60,948 nt of DNA, taken from positions 1 through 60,948 of the forward strand of contig JAAKFL010000001.1 in NCBI GenBank assembly GCA_011065065.1, given 5' to 3'. Positions 44,794 to 51,458 of the stretch are shown here, piece by piece. The notes beneath the pieces are model-generated. The model saw nothing but the letters and a program-made list of their open reading frames with translations, was not told the origin of the DNA and made no database searches. This stretch comes from Chlamydiota bacterium. Lineage in GTDB: Bacteria; Chlamydiota; Chlamydiia; Chlamydiales; SLFE01. Made by a program: the position numbers and the translations under genes. How positions within the stretch are numbered: the first letter of the stretch is position 1; every line of letters begins with the position of its first letter.

Positions 44794-47355
44794 TTACGAA
44801 AGGTGCCCCTGAATGAAACCCATGATCTTCATCATGTGCACCTGGTCCGTTGAACCGAACACCTTTCCAAGCTTCTCATCTGGATTGATATTCCGCTTAT
44901 CCTTCGGATCCTGAAGATCGTTCGCTTTGATATACTCCCACACCTTCTTTAACACATCACCACGCGGCATTTCGTCAGCACCTGTAATGGCGGCTAGCTC
45001 TGCCGATAGCTTAAGGGGTTTGGTGGTTACAGCAGTATTTTTTCGTGTTTTCTTAGTTTTTGTTTTCGCCTTAGCCTTCGCTTTTCCTTTGGCTTTTTTC
45101 GCTTTTTTCTTGTAGGGGGTGCGAGGATAATTGGGATATTTTTCTTTGAGTTTATCCAAATCGTTGACAATGACATCACACTCGGGATAGGTCGAGCACG
45201 AATAAAATACTTTTCCAAATCGCGAACGACGCGCTGTAATTTTTCCTGGACAATCAATCGCAGGACATTCTGGCATATCGGCCTCAGGAATCGCTAACTC
45301 TCCTTTCTTAGGAATCTGGATGATTCCTCGACAATCAGGATAGCGTGAACACCCTAAAAAAGTGCCGTACCTTCCGTGACGAATCTTCATCTCCGATTGA
45401 CACTTAGGACAGGGTTGATCCCAGTCAAAATCCTCAGCATAATCTTCTTTGGAGAAGTCCATTTGCTCAATGGGAGCACTAAATGTACACTCGGGATAAT
45501 TGGAACAGCCGAAAAAATACTTCGATTTGAACCACACCTTTTGCAACTTGCCGCCACAATCAGGACAATCTTTATCAGTCAGGATTTTGGGAATAAAGGC
45601 CGACTTTTCCGCTTCTTCAAGTGTTGGAATAAAGTCATCCCAAAACTCACGAATGAGCGATTTCCAGTCTTTCTTGTCCGCAGCAATGAGTTCGAGTGTA
45701 TCTTCCAAATTTGCCGTGAAGCCTACATCCATAATTTTGGTAAAGTTAGCCTCCAATAAATCAGCAATCACACATCCTAGCTCAGTCGGCTTGAGGCGAT
45801 TTCCCTCTTTTACTGTGTATTCACGATTTTGAATTTTGTTCATGATCGAGGCGTAAGTTGAAGGACGCCCAATTCCCGATTTCTCCAGCTCCTTCACCAA
45901 CGAAGCTTCAGTAAATCGTGGCGGAGGACGGGTAAAAGATTGTTCAGATGTGAGTTCCTGAAGTGACAATGATTGACCTTCCTGGAGGTCAGGAAGCTTC
46001 CGGTCAAGCTCTTCTTCATCATCATCATCATCATCCATCATCTCATGATAGGCGGCCAACCACCCAGAAAACTTCAACACTGAACCTGTAGCTCGTAACA
46101 TAATATTGTCACCCGCTTGAATGTCTGCAGACAGAGTGTCATAAATGGCCGATTTCATCTGTGAGGCAATAAATCTTTGCCAGATCAACAAATAGATGTT
46201 GAATTGGTCGTTGCTCAAATAAGGGCGGACAGTGTCAGGGTGGTTATGAAGATTTGTCGGCCGTATCGCTTCGTGAGCATCCTGTGAATTCTTCTTAGAT
46301 GAATACATTCTTGGCTTTTGTGGGACATACTCGTTACCAAAACGATCAGCGATGTATTTACGGGCTTCATCAATAGCATTTGGTTCCACACGAACAGAGT
46401 CTGTACGCATGTAGGTAATGAGACCCTCTGTTCCCGCGTTCCCTAATTCGAGACCTTCATAAAGCTGCTGTGCGATGCTCATTGTTCGGGAAGTGGAGTA
46501 GCCGTGGTGGCGGCTAGCCTCTTGTTGTAAAGTTGAGGTGATAAACGGAGGAACCGGATTTCTTTTCTTTTCTTTCCGTTCTACCTTAGTCACCGAATAA
46601 GGAACATCTTTCATCATAGAAAGAATTTTTTGCGCCTCTTCTTCATTTCCAATGAGAGTGACCTCTTTCCCTTCAATAGGTTCTTTTTCCACTTTCTTCC
46701 CATCGACAGAATAAAGCGATGCTTTAAAAGACTTTGCATCATCCAACAGTAAAAGAAGAGCCCCTAAATTCCAATACTCGACAGGATTGAACGCTTCGAT
46801 CTCTCTTTCCCTTTGCACCACTAACTTTAACGCAACTGACTGCACTCTTCCAGCAGATACCCACTTCGATTTTCCTCTTTGAATCCTGCGGTTTAATAAC
46901 GGAGAAATCTTATATCCCACGATCCGGTCCAGTAACCGTCTCGCTTGTTGCGCATCCACAAGCGGCTGATTGATCTCCCGGGGGTTTTCTAATGCTCTTG
47001 AGACTTCTTCTTTCGTGATCGCATTGAATGAAATCCGCTTACATTTTGTGGATTCAGGGAGAATCTGTTTAATATGCCAGGCAATGGCTTCTCCTTCACG
47101 GTCAGGGTCAGGGGAAAGGTAGACGACATCAGCCTCTTTGGCAGCTTTCTTCAAGCGGTCGATGACTGCCTTCTTATCCGCCATAATTTGGTAGATCGGC
47201 TCGAAATCATTATCAGTATCAATACCAAAATCTTTTTGCGGCAGATCGCGGATATGTCCAACCGAGGATTCAAAAGCATATTTTGAACCTAGGAATTTTT
47301 TTAATGTTTTTATCTTTGCGGGCGACTCCACAATGATCAGCGGCTTCTTGGCCAT
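44794..47355 (-). CDS. topA: DNA topoisomerase I with a C-terminal SWIB domain
   Basis: Toprim N-terminus LIIVESPAKIKT, three Cys4 zinc ribbons, a Lys-rich linker KKAKKAKGKAKAKAKTKTKK, and a C-terminal SWIB-like segment LSAELAAITG...VLKKVWEYIKANDLQDP. Confidence 0.95.
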   Translation of the reverse strand: MAKKPLIIVESPAKIKTLKKFLGSKYAFESSVGHIRDLPQKDFGIDTDNDFEPIYQIMADKKAVIDRLKKAAKEADVVYLSPDPDREGEAIAWHIKQILPESTKCKRISFNAITKEEVSRALENPREINQPLVDAQQARRLLDRIVGYKISPLLNRRIQRGKSKWVSAGRVQSVALKLVVQREREIEAFNPVEYWNLGALLLLLDDAKSFKASLYSVDGKKVEKEPIEGKEVTLIGNEEEAQKILSMMKDVPYSVTKVERKEKKRNPVPPFITSTLQQEASRHHGYSTSRTMSIAQQLYEGLELGNAGTEGLITYMRTDSVRVEPNAIDEARKYIADRFGNEYVPQKPRMYSSKKNSQDAHEAIRPTNLHNHPDTVRPYLSNDQFNIYLLIWQRFIASQMKSAIYDTLSADIQAGDNIMLRATGSVLKFSGWLAAYHEMMDDDDDDEEELDRKLPDLQEGQSLSLQELTSEQSFTRPPPRFTEASLVKELEKSGIGRPSTYASIMNKIQNREYTVKEGNRLKPTELGCVIADLLEANFTKIMDVGFTANLEDTLELIAADKKDWKSLIREFWDDFIPTLEEAEKSAFIPKILTDKDCPDCGGKLQKVWFKSKYFFGCSNYPECTFSAPIEQMDFSKEDYAEDFDWDQPCPKCQSEMKIRHGRYGTFLGCSRYPDCRGIIQIPKKGELAIPEADMPECPAIDCPGKITARRSRFGKVFYSCSTYPECDVIVNDLDKLKEKYPNYPRTPYKKKAKKAKGKAKAKAKTKTKKTRKNTAVTTKPLKLSAELAAITGADEMPRGDVLKKVWEYIKANDLQDPKDKRNINPDEKLGKVFGSTDQVHMMKIMGFIQGHLS

Positions 47356-47410
47356 ATGGTTTCTGTCTCCTTGAGAGTTAAGAAAAGTCTTTATCTTAAC
47401 TTATTTATAA

Positions 47411-48514
47411 TTAATGGGCAACATGTGCTTTCTTATATATACGCCCGGGGTATTCTTTTACCTGCTTCTTTAATATAAGACTCATTATCAAAACATTTAA
47501 TTTCTGGATAGGGAGATTTGCCAGCGAGGCCAGGTGGTCGATACCGATTTCATCTTGGGGAAAGATCTTAAGTAGCTCTTCTTCTTCGCGTTCTAGTTTA
47601 GGGGGCGCAGGCTTGATTTCCAAATTTTTTTTTATTGTAGGCAGCCATCCTTTGAAATCTTCTTTGATATCTTCCGGTTTGCTGACGAATTTTGCTTGTT
47701 GACTCTTTATTAATGTGTGATTTCCTTCAAAATTTGGGATATCGGCCCTTCCTGAAAGGGCATAGAGGTTCCGTCCTTGAGCCAATCCCATCCGCATGGT
47801 GATCATGGCGCCACTTTTCACAGGAGCTTCAATCAAAAGTATTCCAGAAGACATTCCGCTGACAATCCGGTTTCTTTGCGGAAATCTTTGGCGGTCAGGG
47901 GGAGTATTCATAGGAAATTCGCTGATGACGGCGCCGTTTTCGGCAATGACACTGGCAAGATTTTTGTTTTCACTAGGGTAGATATTGCAAAGACCCGACC
48001 CCAAAACAGCTATGGTGCGACCCTTTTTTCGAGCTCCTTCATGCGCTGCAGTATCAATTCCGCGGGCTAATCCACTGATGATGGTAAAGCCTTGATGAGC
48101 GAGCTCTAAACCAAACTTATGGGCCATTTCCAAACCATAGTGAGTGGCGGAGCGGGTTCCGATAATGGCGATGGATTGATGGTCCGAAGGAGTCATATCT
48201 CCTTTTACGTAAAGGAGGATCGGAAAATCGGGGATGTTGAGGAGTCTTTTGGGGTATCGCTTGTCGGTAAAGGGGATGATTTGGGCATCAAAGCGGTGGG
48301 CGAGATTTTGATCAAGTTCAGCGGTTTGAGTAGCCTCTTCGGGATTCCATTGACTGATGATCTTAGAACCAAAACCGGGAAGTTTTCTCAAATCTTCTGG
48401 CGAAGCATTCAGGGCATCGACTGCGGAACCAAAAACTTGGAGTAACAGCTGAATTTTGACGGAGCCGAGAAGCGGCATGGAGTTTAGAGTGATAAGAGCG
48501 TTCAGTTCGTTCAT
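47411..48514 (-). CDS. dprA: DNA processing protein DprA (Smf)
   Basis: SGLARGIDTAAHEGA Rossmann-like core. The dprA-topA adjacency is common in bacteria. Confidence 0.85.
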   Translation of the reverse strand: MNELNALITLNSMPLLGSVKIQLLLQVFGSAVDALNASPEDLRKLPGFGSKIISQWNPEEATQTAELDQNLAHRFDAQIIPFTDKRYPKRLLNIPDFPILLYVKGDMTPSDHQSIAIIGTRSATHYGLEMAHKFGLELAHQGFTIISGLARGIDTAAHEGARKKGRTIAVLGSGLCNIYPSENKNLASVIAENGAVISEFPMNTPPDRQRFPQRNRIVSGMSSGILLIEAPVKSGAMITMRMGLAQGRNLYALSGRADIPNFEGNHTLIKSQQAKFVSKPEDIKEDFKGWLPTIKKNLEIKPAPPKLEREEEELLKIFPQDEIGIDHLASLANLPIQKLNVLIMSLILKKQVKEYPGRIYKKAHVAH

Positions 48515-48605
48515 GTGGGGTGATTATATGGGTTCCATGAACTTTTTGTAAATGGACGGGATGGACGAAATGTCATTTACGTCGTTTTCGTCGTTTTTAG
48601 ACTTC

Positions 48606-48640
48606 AAAAAAAGTGGTGGTAATTGACATTACCACCACTT
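48606..48640 (-). terminator. orphan intrinsic terminator on the minus strand
   Basis: On the minus strand, a perfect stem agtggtggtaat / attaccaccact around a 4-nt loop, followed by tttttt. No ORF of 60 aa or more lies upstream of it on that strand. Confidence 0.55.
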
Positions 48641-49320
48641 CGTAAGAACATACACATATAAGCTTCGGTAAGAAGCTGTCATTCGTGATGCATTCGTGAC
48701 AAGTGTACAAGTTTCAAGCTCACAGTCTGTGTCTTATGTCATACTTAATGTACAAATTCACACGCCTTAAGGCGTTTTCGAAAAAATAGACAAAACTTCA
48801 AAGATGCAGCGGATTTTAAATTCCTCCAATCCAAACTCCACAAGCGATGCACTGATGAACATCCCCAACCCAGAACAGTCTAAACTTTAATCTTCCTAAC
48901 CGTTCCCTCCTTTAAGATTCCCCAATCTCAAGAAGGTGATCCCTATTTTAACGCTTGCAATTTGTAAAATTTAAGATCTAAGTTAGGTTAACCTCCATTT
49001 ATTACTTGTGCTAGGTCGAGAAAACAGCGCGCTTTGTCGCTTTTGCTTATTTTCCCTTTATGTTTTCAACCTCGCTTGTCTCCAAACGAGTTCATTTTCA
49101 AACCAGTTTCAAAGTTCCAAAGTTACACCCAAAGTGCGTGGTTTCGAGCTTTACAGACTTGTGTCACCCCCTTTTTTGCTCCAGCGTCCCACTAGTATTG
49201 GGCTGTGTACCGCATGCCCCAAATCAACAGCATGCGACCAGGACAAGAAAAACAATAAAGTCCTGTTATTGTTCTATTTATCACTTTATATAAAAATCAT
49301 CAAGGCTTAAATTATTGGGT

Positions 49321-50484
49321 ATGTACCGAAAAGCGAGCCTTTTTTCTTTCTGGAGCTCTCAGCACCTCTTTCGAATTGATTTCCGGGTCCTCCCCGTCAT
49401 CCTTTCGCTCATGTGTATCAGTATCTTAGTGATCGGATCCCATTCGTCTGAACAGGGAGTCGACTCCCTGATGGAAATCTTCAAAAGCGCTTTTGTCAAA
49501 AAACAAATCCAGTTTTTTGCGGTTTCTATCGGTGTCTTCATTTTTTTTGCTGGAATCGATTACAATAAACTCCGAGAATGGGTATGGGTGATCTATGTCC
49601 TTGCTGTTCTCGCTCTTATAGGTCTGTTTTTTACTGACTCCATCGCACGTGTCCACCGGTGGTATCGAATTCCTTTGATCGGGATTAGTATGCAACCGGC
49701 TGAGTATACGAAACTTGCAGTGGTAATCAGTCTGAGTTGGTTTTTGGAAAAGAGAAAGGACCGGTCGCAAGATTGGAGTACGGCTTTTTTTAGTGGGATC
49801 ATTGTGGGAATTCCCTTTTTGTTAATTCTGAAACAACCCGACTTGGGATCGGCCCTTGTTTTATATCCGATTGCTTTGGTGATGTTTTATTATGGTGGTC
49901 TCAATCCGTTATTAATCCGATTGATGACCTGGTTTGGTGCCCTTGTTCTTTTGATTGTGGCATTGTTCTTTCTGCAGATTGTCTCCCATGATGACTTAAG
50001 ACCTTATGCCTCAAGGGTCATAAAGGAGTATCAGTATGACCGGCTCAATCCAAATAATCACCATCAAAAAGCCTCGTTGACTGCGATTGCAGTTGGCGGA
50101 GTGACGGGGACTGGGTGGAATAAGAGCGAGTACACAGGAGGTGGTTGGTTGCCGGCTCCGTTTACCGATTCCGTTTTTCCAGCATTTGGAGAAGAATTTG
50201 GTTTTCTAGGACTTTTATTGATGATGGTTCTTTTTTATGCTTTAGTTTATTTTAGTTTCCAGGTTACGGCTATGGCCAAGGATCACTTTGGGCGCCTATT
50301 GTCTGCAGGGATTAGTGTCTACCTTGCCATGCATATCTTGGTGAATGTGGGGATGATGTGTGGGCTTTTGCCGATTACAGGAGTTCCGCTGATTTTAGTG
50401 ACTTATGGAGGGTCTTCGGTATTATTGACAATGACAGCGTTGGGAATATTACAAAGTATTTATAGTCGAAGGTTTACGTATTAG
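49321..50484 (+). CDS. SEDS-family peptidoglycan glycosyltransferase (RodA/FtsW)
   Basis: Polytopic protein with KQPDLGSAL and QPAEYTKL motifs. ATG at 49321 (the ORF-track start at 49315 is TTG). Confidence 0.85.
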   Translation: MYRKASLFSFWSSQHLFRIDFRVLPVILSLMCISILVIGSHSSEQGVDSLMEIFKSAFVKKQIQFFAVSIGVFIFFAGIDYNKLREWVWVIYVLAVLALIGLFFTDSIARVHRWYRIPLIGISMQPAEYTKLAVVISLSWFLEKRKDRSQDWSTAFFSGIIVGIPFLLILKQPDLGSALVLYPIALVMFYYGGLNPLLIRLMTWFGALVLLIVALFFLQIVSHDDLRPYASRVIKEYQYDRLNPNNHHQKASLTAIAVGGVTGTGWNKSEYTGGGWLPAPFTDSVFPAFGEEFGFLGLLLMMVLFYALVYFSFQVTAMAKDHFGRLLSAGISVYLAMHILVNVGMMCGLLPITGVPLILVTYGGSSVLLTMTALGILQSIYSRRFTY

Positions 50485-50499
50485 AGTAAAGGAAAAATT

Positions 50500-50970
50500 A
50501 TGAGTGTAAAGCATCCGTTTTTTTTGTGTCCTGGAGAGTGGCTGGGTGAAGGAAAGATCGGGTTTAGTGCCTCAGATGAAGAGCTTCAGTTTTATACGCA
50601 TTGGAATATTTTGGATTCAGGAGATGTTCAGCTGGGGCAAAAAAATGTCCGATGTACCCAAGAAGTGGAAATGCAGGATGCAGCTGATGAAAAAATGTTT
50701 AACCGATTTCACTTTACCGAGATTGGAATCCAGAGTTTTAAAATTTTACTCGAAAACGAGCAGATAGGGACTGTTTTTGGTGAAGGGATTATCGAAAAAG
50801 ACAAGGTGGCTTGGGAGTTTCGTGGACATCCTCATATTGAAGGATTTGAGGTTTACACTTTAGGGGAAAATGGTGAGTATGAATTTCACGCTGAATATAT
50901 TTCTCCAGAAGGCTATCGATCGATTATTAATGGTCGGATTTGGAAGAAACAGTATTCTAAGAAGTCTTAA
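50500..50970 (+). CDS. hypothetical protein
   Basis: 156-aa ORF with AGGA upstream; no motif recognised. Confidence 0.55.
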   Translation: MSVKHPFFLCPGEWLGEGKIGFSASDEELQFYTHWNILDSGDVQLGQKNVRCTQEVEMQDAADEKMFNRFHFTEIGIQSFKILLENEQIGTVFGEGIIEKDKVAWEFRGHPHIEGFEVYTLGENGEYEFHAEYISPEGYRSIINGRIWKKQYSKKS

Positions 50971-51458
50971 ATTTCTAAAAGATTGCGCACCCATCGTTCC
51001 TTAGGCTGCTCATCAAGGGGAAGGGAATGAAAAAATTCTTTTATACTATTAAAGTAATCCTGTTCTCCCAACAACTTCAATGAGTCTACCATCTTTCCTA
51101 AACGGACTTCATAATGGTTCCATGTCTGATTATGGTCGGGATTGCTGATAGGGCTTCGGTTTTCGATATCCCATCCCCAAGAAAGGACTAAGAGTTCGAC
51201 ACCCCGGCGGAAATTCTTCATGAATTCTGCGTCACTCTTGAGATCTAAAATTTCTTGTTGATAAATGGTGTATTTTGCTCCCTGGCCAGCGCTGGTTCGC
51301 GCTATGGGAAACATCCACCAATCGTAATGATGAAGAAGAAAGGCGTTCCAATCGTGGTTTTGTGCCCAATTCTCAAACTGTTGCAATTGCTGAAAATGCT
51401 GTTTTTTCAGGTTCTCTATGCCAACAAATTGGGGATTGTGTGCAGGAATGTTCTTCAT
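50967..51458 (-). CDS. hypothetical protein (possible OGFr-N-like domain)
   Basis: HHYDWWMFPI resembles the H.YIQW.FP block of the OGFr N-terminal domain family; weak, from memory. Confidence 0.5.
   Translation of the reverse strand: MKNIPAHNPQFVGIENLKKQHFQQLQQFENWAQNHDWNAFLLHHYDWWMFPIARTSAGQGAKYTIYQQEILDLKSDAEFMKNFRRGVELLVLSWGWDIENRSPISNPDHNQTWNHYEVRLGKMVDSLKLLGEQDYFNSIKEFFHSLPLDEQPKERWVRNLLEI

Follow-up and report, generated by a model that had tools for sequence, protein, structure and literature searches.

Dual-function RNAs, such as RNAIII/hld of Staphylococcus aureus, SgrS/SgrT of Escherichia coli and SR1/SR1P of Bacillus subtilis, are long structured transcripts with a promoter and a terminator of their own and one small open reading frame (ORF). 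In them the RNA is better conserved than the peptide and seems to have its own role, and lineages that have the RNA without the ORF are known, SgrT being missing in some enterobacteria. The RNA family described here shares these traits. It was studied in a stretch of 60,948 nucleotides from a chlamydial genome (contig JAAKFL010000001.1, positions 1 to 60,948), which as a whole is called the window. Position 48606 to approximately 49268 on the minus strand of the window is probably the gene of a predicted structured RNA of about 660 nt, part of a conserved chlamydial RNA family that lost its ORF here. In contrast to its likeness in architecture, the unit has no sequence or Rfam similarity to the dual-function RNAs, and its loops are G-rich and Shine-Dalgarno (SD)-like whereas those of RNAIII are C-rich anti-SD loops. 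Because the ORF is absent in the window, the window's copy would be a derivative of a dual-function RNA and not a current member of that group. The host is an obligate intracellular chlamydia and is not known to have Hfq.

Besides dual-function RNAs, the unit most resembles a structured leader with SD-like docking sites, and it is placed outside the Rfam families, 6S RNA and the Csr/Rsm sponges. STAB-SD stabilisers (Bacillus thuringiensis cry3A; the aprE and gsiB leaders) are likewise perfect SD-like sequences in a long leader, far from any start codon and unused by one, and are said to bind the 3' end of 16S rRNA. In the chlamydial unit the decamer AAGGAGGUGA offers 10 nt complementary to the chlamydial 16S tail, with no start codon after it. 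However, STAB-SD is a short linear element of Firmicutes that protects against RNase J, whereas the decamer is found in the apical loop of a covarying three-helix domain, is repeated in further loops and persists after the loss of the ORF. CsrB, RsmY and RsmZ are non-coding transcripts of several hundred nt with repeated GGA-loop hairpins, as is the RNA of the window; yet the loops here are GGAGG or GGGGA and not ANGGA, the conservation of one of its domains goes far beyond that of any Csr/Rsm repeat, and CsrA was not found in the window's genome, its family or most carriers of the RNA. With riboswitches and other structured 5' leaders the unit shares covarying helices around invariant junction nucleotides and, in most families, a position in the 5' untranslated region (UTR). 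It differs from them in that an adjacent expression platform is lacking, the start codon is 250-400 nt away and the element is kept without any ORF.

Two further RNAs were considered. IhtA, the best-studied conserved chlamydial small RNA, regulates hctA, measures about 100-120 nt and was described in Chlamydiaceae. It resembles the present RNA as a chlamydial riboregulator conserved across species, but the latter is 0.55-0.85 kb long, is unrelated in sequence and was detected in none of 27 Chlamydiaceae-type genomes. 6S RNA forms a rod about 180 nt long that has a central bubble. It was rejected as a candidate: model RF00013 had no match in the window's genome (G000) or in G004, G021, G098 and G136, and in the present unit the core stacks three short helices below an apical loop of 30 nt, all within a 660-nt RNA. 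The same model detects 6S RNA in 5 of 14 control genomes, and in the five chlamydial genomes 6S RNA is either absent or diverged beyond the model.

Structure, strand and distribution of the core

A sequence-only reading of the window had proposed a minus-strand RNA of about 0.6 kb in the spacer between dprA and a SEDS (RodA/FtsW) gene and had named conservation in related genomes as a check. Both sequence and structure proved to be conserved, and the proposal was supported in that promoter, strand, structure and terminator are all backed by the comparison. The relatives of the window's genome (G000, 80% complete) include its genus-mate G001 (99% complete) and G003 and G004 of the same family. 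By DNA BLAST against 40 related genomes, positions 49051-49316 showed 74-84% identity in four same-family genomes. An 80-nt core stretch (49128-49211) showed 75-80% identity in three other families, where it has different neighbour genes. Within the window's family the whole stretch from promoter to terminator was collinear in the alignment.

The core element is more than a chance match. Covariance model R2 scored it at 95 bits (E about 5e-26; the E-values of these models are rough, after a short calibration), and the same model gave a single copy in dozens of other genomes. R2 was built after a pair-by-pair check; a first model, R1, had been dropped, its 3' helix halves being mis-registered by 2 columns. 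When 30 genomes were aligned to the model, 93.6% of the cells were paired compared with 86.3% in shuffles, and 9 of the 18 pairs had changed on both sides (46 cells). As this alignment was fitted to the model, its pairing counts lean towards the structure. The covariation score was reached by none of 500 shuffles, and pairing fell to 27-44% when the 3' partner was slid by 1-3 columns. The same helices were obtained from an independent MAFFT/RNAalifold analysis of 8 sequences and from a single-sequence fold. Compensation is visible in P1, which reads CCCAA/UUGGG in the window, CUCGGA/UCCGAG in locus L007 and CUUAA/UUGAG in locus L006. The core alignment contains 32 G-U cells, which become A-C mismatches if read on the other strand. 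They fit the minus strand only, and this indicates that the functional strand is the minus strand of the window.

Hairpins outside the core were compared as well. H1 and H2 occupy constant positions in the window, G001 and G004 while their stems are entirely different: the H1 stem is GGGCGA/UCGCCC in G001 and GCGGGC/GCCCGC in G004, and that of H2 is replaced by CGAGUGUC/GACACUCG and CCUCAUAUC/GAUAUGGGG, respectively. H2 is the hairpin that had been noticed at 49210-49236 from the sequence alone; it is kept in relatives with its stem fully compensated. For H4, 9 pairs were found by RNAalifold, several of them changed on both sides; across 21 genomes its length varies while the CUCG/CGAG base is conserved. 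The hairpin with the UGGAGGA loop has an invariant UGGAGG in all 13 ORF-bearing relatives that were aligned, and its stem pairs are preserved. Fold z-scores were -2.0 for the 5' domain and -6.4 for the whole RNA, the latter calculated from 20 shuffles only.

The distribution of the core was determined in two samples. R2 found exactly one copy in each of 40 out of 150 genomes at the level of the order, and model R3 one copy in each of 38 out of 151 genomes across the phylum. Among the families, f31 was positive in 16 of 17 genomes and f35 in none of 27; the latter has genomes of 1.0-1.3 Mb and is Chlamydiaceae-type by inference, family names having been deduced from two protein matches and from genome sizes. 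As judged from these models, the RNA family is single-copy and widespread in environmental chlamydiae, with carriers in Parachlamydiaceae, Waddliaceae and twelve or more other GTDB families (at least 15 in all). A loose sequence-pattern scan of all prokaryote genomes listed at least 120 loci, 100 of which were scored with R3 (L138-L157 were left out). Only 6 of these 100 matched, and among the matches listed all were chlamydial metagenome-assembled genomes.

The limits of the unit were also compared between families. A strong hairpin followed by a U-run (-15 to -23 kcal/mol) was present 290-690 nt after the core in 22 of the 28 loci with enough downstream sequence, and no long same-strand ORF extends across the interval from core to terminator. 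In most other families, TTGNNN-17-TA-rich boxes were seen by eye about 100 nt upstream of the core. Among the carriers the length of the RNA ranges from 0.55 to 0.85 kb.

The unit appears to represent a new RNA family without a match in Rfam 15. A cmscan search of positions 47000-51000, with E up to 10, gave chance matches only. These were located on the terminator hairpin (STnc390 with 20.6 bits, against a threshold of 50, and mir-1502), and the core had no match. No tRNA or tmRNA was found in the spacer by ARAGORN. In the open-access literature, including papers on chlamydial transcriptomes and regulation, no description of the RNA was found, nor a report of any regulatory RNA conserved across the environmental chlamydial families; we know of hardly any regulatory RNAs in chlamydiae. 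Being single-copy, present in many families, better conserved than the accompanying protein and absent from Rfam, it can be added as a new RNA family. Annotation need then no longer leave such spacers of 0.6-0.8 kb 'empty', and cultivable carriers (Waddlia chondrophila, Protochlamydia) make the predictions testable at the bench.

The small ORF of the relatives and its loss in the window's genus

The full-length alignment shows a reading frame in most families, which takes up the final 170-210 nt ahead of the terminator. A covarying hairpin CUACCC...GGGUAG adjoins the SD sequence GGUGGAGAA (GGGUAG/GUGGAGAA, the slash marking the junction) and is followed by a GTG start and 55-70 codons. The consensus of the product is MSxKxCSLAxDE...FEPxLxxLV...VxIxGxITVSF, with an MSPK variant of the N-terminus. 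Examples are locus L009 of G004 (1962-2120) and locus L029 of the Waddlia genome G075 (approximately 2290-2475), and there are many others. Mismatches between relatives are distributed over the codon positions at about 1:1:2 (for instance 14/7/28 and 16/13/36), and gene callers predicted the ORF independently with an identical start. Named copies are a 'putative uncharacterized protein' in Waddlia chondrophila 2032/99 and a 'hypothetical protein' in Candidatus Protochlamydia sp. R18. The codon-position pattern, the independent gene calls and the named copies show the small ORF to be coding in the relatives.

The small protein matched no Pfam or NCBIfam family and showed no similarity to the CsrA profile, and AlphaFold2 gave no confident fold (mean pLDDT 57) with no predicted secondary structure. 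At its C-terminus hydrophobic residues alternate and the last residue is Phe, as in the C-terminal strand of outer-membrane proteins, yet a signal peptide is lacking.

From this comparison the ancestral unit is read as an mRNA that comprises a promoter of its own, a leader 350-450 nt long, a GTG-start ORF of 55-70 codons and a terminator. Such a leader has a pair of hairpins at its 5' end, the P1-P3 core and a number of hairpins with GGAGG-type loops. A profile of the small protein, A5, located the gene in G003, G004 and G092, in each case 300-400 nt downstream of the core. It detected none in G000 or in the nearly complete genus-mate G001. A three-frame hmmsearch of positions 48600-48830 with the small-protein profile gave no signal, and BLAST of the window against the ORF region of relatives gave no significant similarity. 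With a signal at neither the protein nor the nucleotide level, the ORF is called lost and not a recognisable pseudogene; a faint MAFFT collinearity over the ORF region was not taken as evidence of a remnant. A second line that has the RNA and the terminator without the ORF is locus L033 of family f13.

The fate of the remainder could be followed between the window and its genus-mate. Identity between these two at four-fold degenerate sites of the adjacent SEDS gene is only 31%, which amounts to saturation, yet it reaches 82% in the core segment. They agree almost perfectly in the mid-block TTGCAAGCG.TAAAATAGGGATCAC, and both have retained GGAUUGGAGGA, the promoter and the terminator. The 3' third of the spacer is poorly conserved (35-50% identity). 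That two ORF-less species retain 82% identity in the core while neutral sites are saturated argues for selection on the RNA itself. In the window's genus, purifying selection probably maintains promoter, leader structure and terminator, and what remains there would work as a non-coding RNA. The sequence-only reading had left open a regulatory RNA or a decayed gene. Both are partly true, the ORF being gone in the genus and the RNA part still being conserved. The genus is in this respect a natural experiment, in which the leader was kept and the ORF lost, and it separates the function of the RNA from that of the peptide.

SD-like loops, a proposed mechanism and its rivals

The apical loop of the core contains the most conserved nucleotides of the unit. 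Its consensus is AAGG(A/G)GGUGA, and GGAGGUG is invariant or nearly so in the 30 aligned genomes. The 16S rRNA 3' end reads GGAUCACCUCCUU in G004, G075 and G092, and the decamer AAGGAGGUGA is its exact complement. No conserved AUG, GUG or UUG was present at a usable distance after this loop in the aligned genomes, and small upstream ORFs after other GGAGG motifs were rejected as none was conserved. Hairpins with G-rich loops number 5 in the window RNA where 0.9 are expected from shuffles, and 43 against 17 over 20 genomes. The transcript had been predicted to be rich in GGA and GGAG, and this was borne out: in the transcript of the window GGA occurs 17 times and UCC twice, GGAG 6 times and CUCC not at all. 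Counts over the family are 370 GGA against 133 UCC, 131 GGAG against 26 CUCC, and 51 GGAGG against 6 CCUCC. Since the transcripts are rich in GGAG and poor in its complement, the loops would stay unpaired.

The likeliest mechanism, which is offered tentatively, is that the RNA docks 30S subunits through these SD-like loops. The decamer and the UGGAGGA and UGGGGA loops would pair with the CCUCC tail of 16S rRNA. This tail is the only universal cellular partner with CCUCC, and docking of the 30S subunit is for that reason preferred. Originally such docking may have served to load, to stabilise or protect, or to gate the translation of the small-ORF mRNA. In the window's genus the RNA may have been retained as a trans-acting or ribosome-binding riboregulator. 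The main alternative partner would be a protein that binds GGA or GGAGG. In bacteria that mostly lack CsrA, an invariant 10-nt complement of the 16S tail provides a testable idea for the control of ribosome access; the decamer mutant for comparison with the wild type changes AAGGAGGUGA to AACCUCCUGA. A more ambitious version, which we regard as rather doubtful, makes the RNA a ribosome-targeting riboregulator of a new class. It would be a single-copy, housekeeping-like long RNA that captures the anti-SD tail of the 30S subunit and tunes global translation, for example at the switch between the replicating and the infectious form, and the transition from mRNA to non-coding RNA would be complete in the genus.

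Several points weigh against an RNA gene that acts by docking 30S subunits. The promoter, the 5' end and the abundance of the RNA rest on prediction, and few sites were obtained when the regions preceding the core in other families were scanned with a strict sigma-70 consensus, the boxes there having been found by eye only. The loop of the window reads GGGGG and not GGAGG, which introduces one G-U pair into the proposed pairing with 16S rRNA. The conserved three-helix domain exceeds what a simple SD-like docking site needs, and the binding partner is purely inferred. The model detects the RNA in only about one quarter of the sampled genomes, some of the misses being perhaps due to strict filters or incomplete assemblies. 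Finally, loss of the ORF here, as opposed to its gain elsewhere, is based on parsimony.

The same loops could be read as those of a protein sponge that titrates a GGA- or GGAGG-loop-binding protein in the manner of CsrB/RsmZ and CsrA, and not the ribosome. We consider such a protein sponge unlikely; a sponge RNA had been one of the readings offered from the sequence alone. The loops lend the idea some support: UGGAGGA, UGGGGA or UGGAGACA loops occur on several hairpins of the window RNA, in the excess given above for the window and in total, and the bias of GGA over UCC is family-wide. Furthermore, CsrA is encoded somewhat more often by carriers of the RNA (13 of 40 genomes) than by non-carriers (16 of 110). 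Against the idea, CsrA (PF02599) was found in none of the 6 genomes of the window's family, including the 99%-complete G001 as well as G000, and it is missing from 27 of the 40 RNA-positive genomes, among them the near-complete G092, G136 and G035. No Rfam CsrB/Rsm model matched, and the product of the small ORF has neither CsrA similarity nor a confident fold. A CsrA sponge was rejected for the window's family on this ground, and the partner of a sponge would have to be another protein. In general CsrA is patchy in chlamydiae (29 of the 150 sampled genomes) and absent from whole families. A cis-regulatory sensor is quite improbable in our judgement. In this reading the core would be a riboswitch-like aptamer, or a leader that senses a protein or temperature, and would gate translation of the small ORF; in the genus it would be a vestige or have been re-used. 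Covarying stems around invariant internal-loop nucleotides are hallmarks of an aptamer, in most families a conserved ORF has the core in its 5' UTR, and the covarying hairpin adjoins the SD sequence of that ORF, with a conserved UUCUUC-like stretch upstream which could mask the SD. But the core is situated 250-400 nt upstream of the start codon with no expression platform adjacent to it, the first terminator following only 290-690 nt downstream, and known riboswitch models in Rfam gave no match. Moreover, the core is retained by the two ORF-less species of the genus at saturated neutral sites and by the ORF-less L033. In the window no ORF is present between core and terminator.

It is very unlikely that the unit is a dead remnant, which decays without function in the window's genome after the loss of the ORF. 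The missing ORF and the low identity of the 3' third of the spacer to the genus-mate would agree with decay, but promoter, H1, H2, core, H4, mid-block, GGAGG hairpin and terminator are kept in both ORF-less genomes, the stems are compensated, and the core is far above the identity at four-fold sites. Hardly credible is a feature of the plus strand, either the 5' UTR and promoter region of the SEDS gene (rodA/ftsW) or a real plus-strand ORF of 53-100 aa. In the window's family the element always adjoins the SEDS start, and ORFs of 100 aa in the window and 107 aa in G001 overlap the core. However, the core is away from SEDS in all other families, where it follows a TPR-like gene in the minus-strand sense, the G-U cells fit the minus strand alone, and most families have no antisense ORF across the core. 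The peptide stretch that is shared is merely the reverse complement of the invariant core.

Layout of the locus

In the window a gene for topoisomerase I with a C-terminal SWIB domain (44794-47355) and dprA (47411-48514) are found on the minus strand, and the SEDS gene begins at 49315 or 49321 on the plus strand, leaving a spacer of 806 bp (48515-49320). These three genes mark the window as chlamydial. As the sequence-only reading had stated, no minus-strand ORF of at least 60 aa is present in it, the longest being 37, 35, 34, 33 and 30 aa. The two overlapping plus-strand ORFs of at least 60 aa that it had reported were found at 49008-49310 (100 aa) and 49060-49293 (77 aa), together with a shorter one at 49034-49195 (53 aa). 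The minus-strand ORFs of 33-37 aa and the plus-strand ORFs of 53-100 aa were rejected as genes, because they are not conserved as ORFs. The C-over-G asymmetry was confirmed, with exactly 15 G and 37 C in 48841-48960; only 0.5% of the 120-nt stretches across the 61-kb window have so negative a skew. The motifs and local hairpins that had been quoted are present. The minus-strand terminator was recovered by a terminator scan, with its stem from 48638 to 48616 followed by a T run. For the promoter, the boxes TTGATG-17-TAAATA are real and conserved in three same-family relatives, but their position had been given about 13 nt away from the actual one (49303-49298 and 49280-49275). This promoter, the start of transcription and transcription itself are predictions. 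The features are listed in Table 1.

Table 1. Predicted features of the RNA gene and of the adjoining dprA promoter, in window coordinates
Feature	Position	Strand	Basis or remark
-35 hexamer TTGATG	49298..49303	minus	sequence; TTGATG or TTGAAG in L002, L003, L005
-10 hexamer TAAATA	49275..49280	minus	spacer of 17 nt; predicted start near 49268
Hairpin H1 (CAGGAC...GUCCUG)	49239..49265	minus	minimum free energy (MFE) fold; hairpin at same position in G001, G004
Hairpin H2 (GCAUGC...GCAUGC), UUGGGG-type loop	49212..49235	minus	MFE fold and relatives
Core motif: stacked helices P1-P2-P3, conserved internal loops, apical loop of about 30 nt	49122..49207 (86 nt)	minus	covariance model R2, 95 bits, E 5e-26
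Apical-loop decamer AAGGGGGUGA (AAGGAGGUGA in most relatives)	49164..49173	minus	complements 16S 3' end UCACCUCCUU
Hairpin H4 (CUCGUUUG-GAGA-CAAGCGAG), A-rich flanks GAAAAUGAA and GUUGAAAA	49071..49090	minus	RNAalifold
Mid-RNA block UGCAAGCGUUAAAAUAGGGA	48940..48959	minus	near-identical in window, G001, G004, G002
UGGGGA-loop hairpin (UUGAGAU-UGGGGA-AUCUUAA)	48912..48931	minus	AUUGGGGAAU / AUUGGAGAAU motif recurs in other families
UGGAGGA-loop hairpin, family-wide consensus CAACU-UGGAGGA-GUUUG	48811..48835	minus	aligned relatives
Stretch matching pre-SD hairpin, SD GGUGGAGAA and 55-70-aa ORF of relatives	48640..48810	minus	no ORF and no protein remnant detectable here
Intrinsic terminator: 12-bp stem AGUGGUGGUAAU/AUUACCACCACU, GUCA loop, U7 ending at 48606	48606..48639	minus	terminator scan and sequence
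dprA promoter TTTACA-18-TATAAT (outside unit, past terminator)	48523..48552	minus	11 of 12 consensus matches

With a near-consensus sigma-70 promoter of its own, dprA is independent of read-through from the RNA gene. On the other side, the -35 box of the RNA gene is located 12-18 nt from the SEDS start codon on the opposite strand, an arrangement that is kept in L002, L003 and L005. At so short a distance, the promoter and 5' UTR of the SEDS gene must run antisense across the 5' portion of the RNA gene.

Outside the window's family the core is not found beside SEDS; it comes after a TPR-like gene and is oriented like the minus strand of the window. The TPR-like gene encodes 220-280 aa with an N-terminal membrane helix, and in most families the RNA unit lies 70-280 nt downstream of it. 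It was seen in L006 (1791-2459, minus strand), L008 (575-1369, plus strand) and 20 or more other loci. The TPR-like gene is divergent from another gene, which is parB in L006, the sole locus where this neighbour was read. The window's family has lost this linkage, its RNA unit adjoining the SEDS gene instead. The downstream genes also differ by family: aroB, topA, a collagen-like gene, a vWA gene, or a convergent enolase or LRR gene. In Waddlia chondrophila the unit precedes topA (G075:C1, approximately 1,825,560-1,826,290). As they vary in this way, the unit stands alone.

A last observation concerns the SEDS gene. In L002 (3-1493, minus strand), a locus of G004, the SEDS/RodA frame continues into the next gene for about 100 additional residues. 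Beyond ...ITYGG the C-terminal sequence no longer follows that of the window, suggesting that G004 has a frameshift or an assembly error here.

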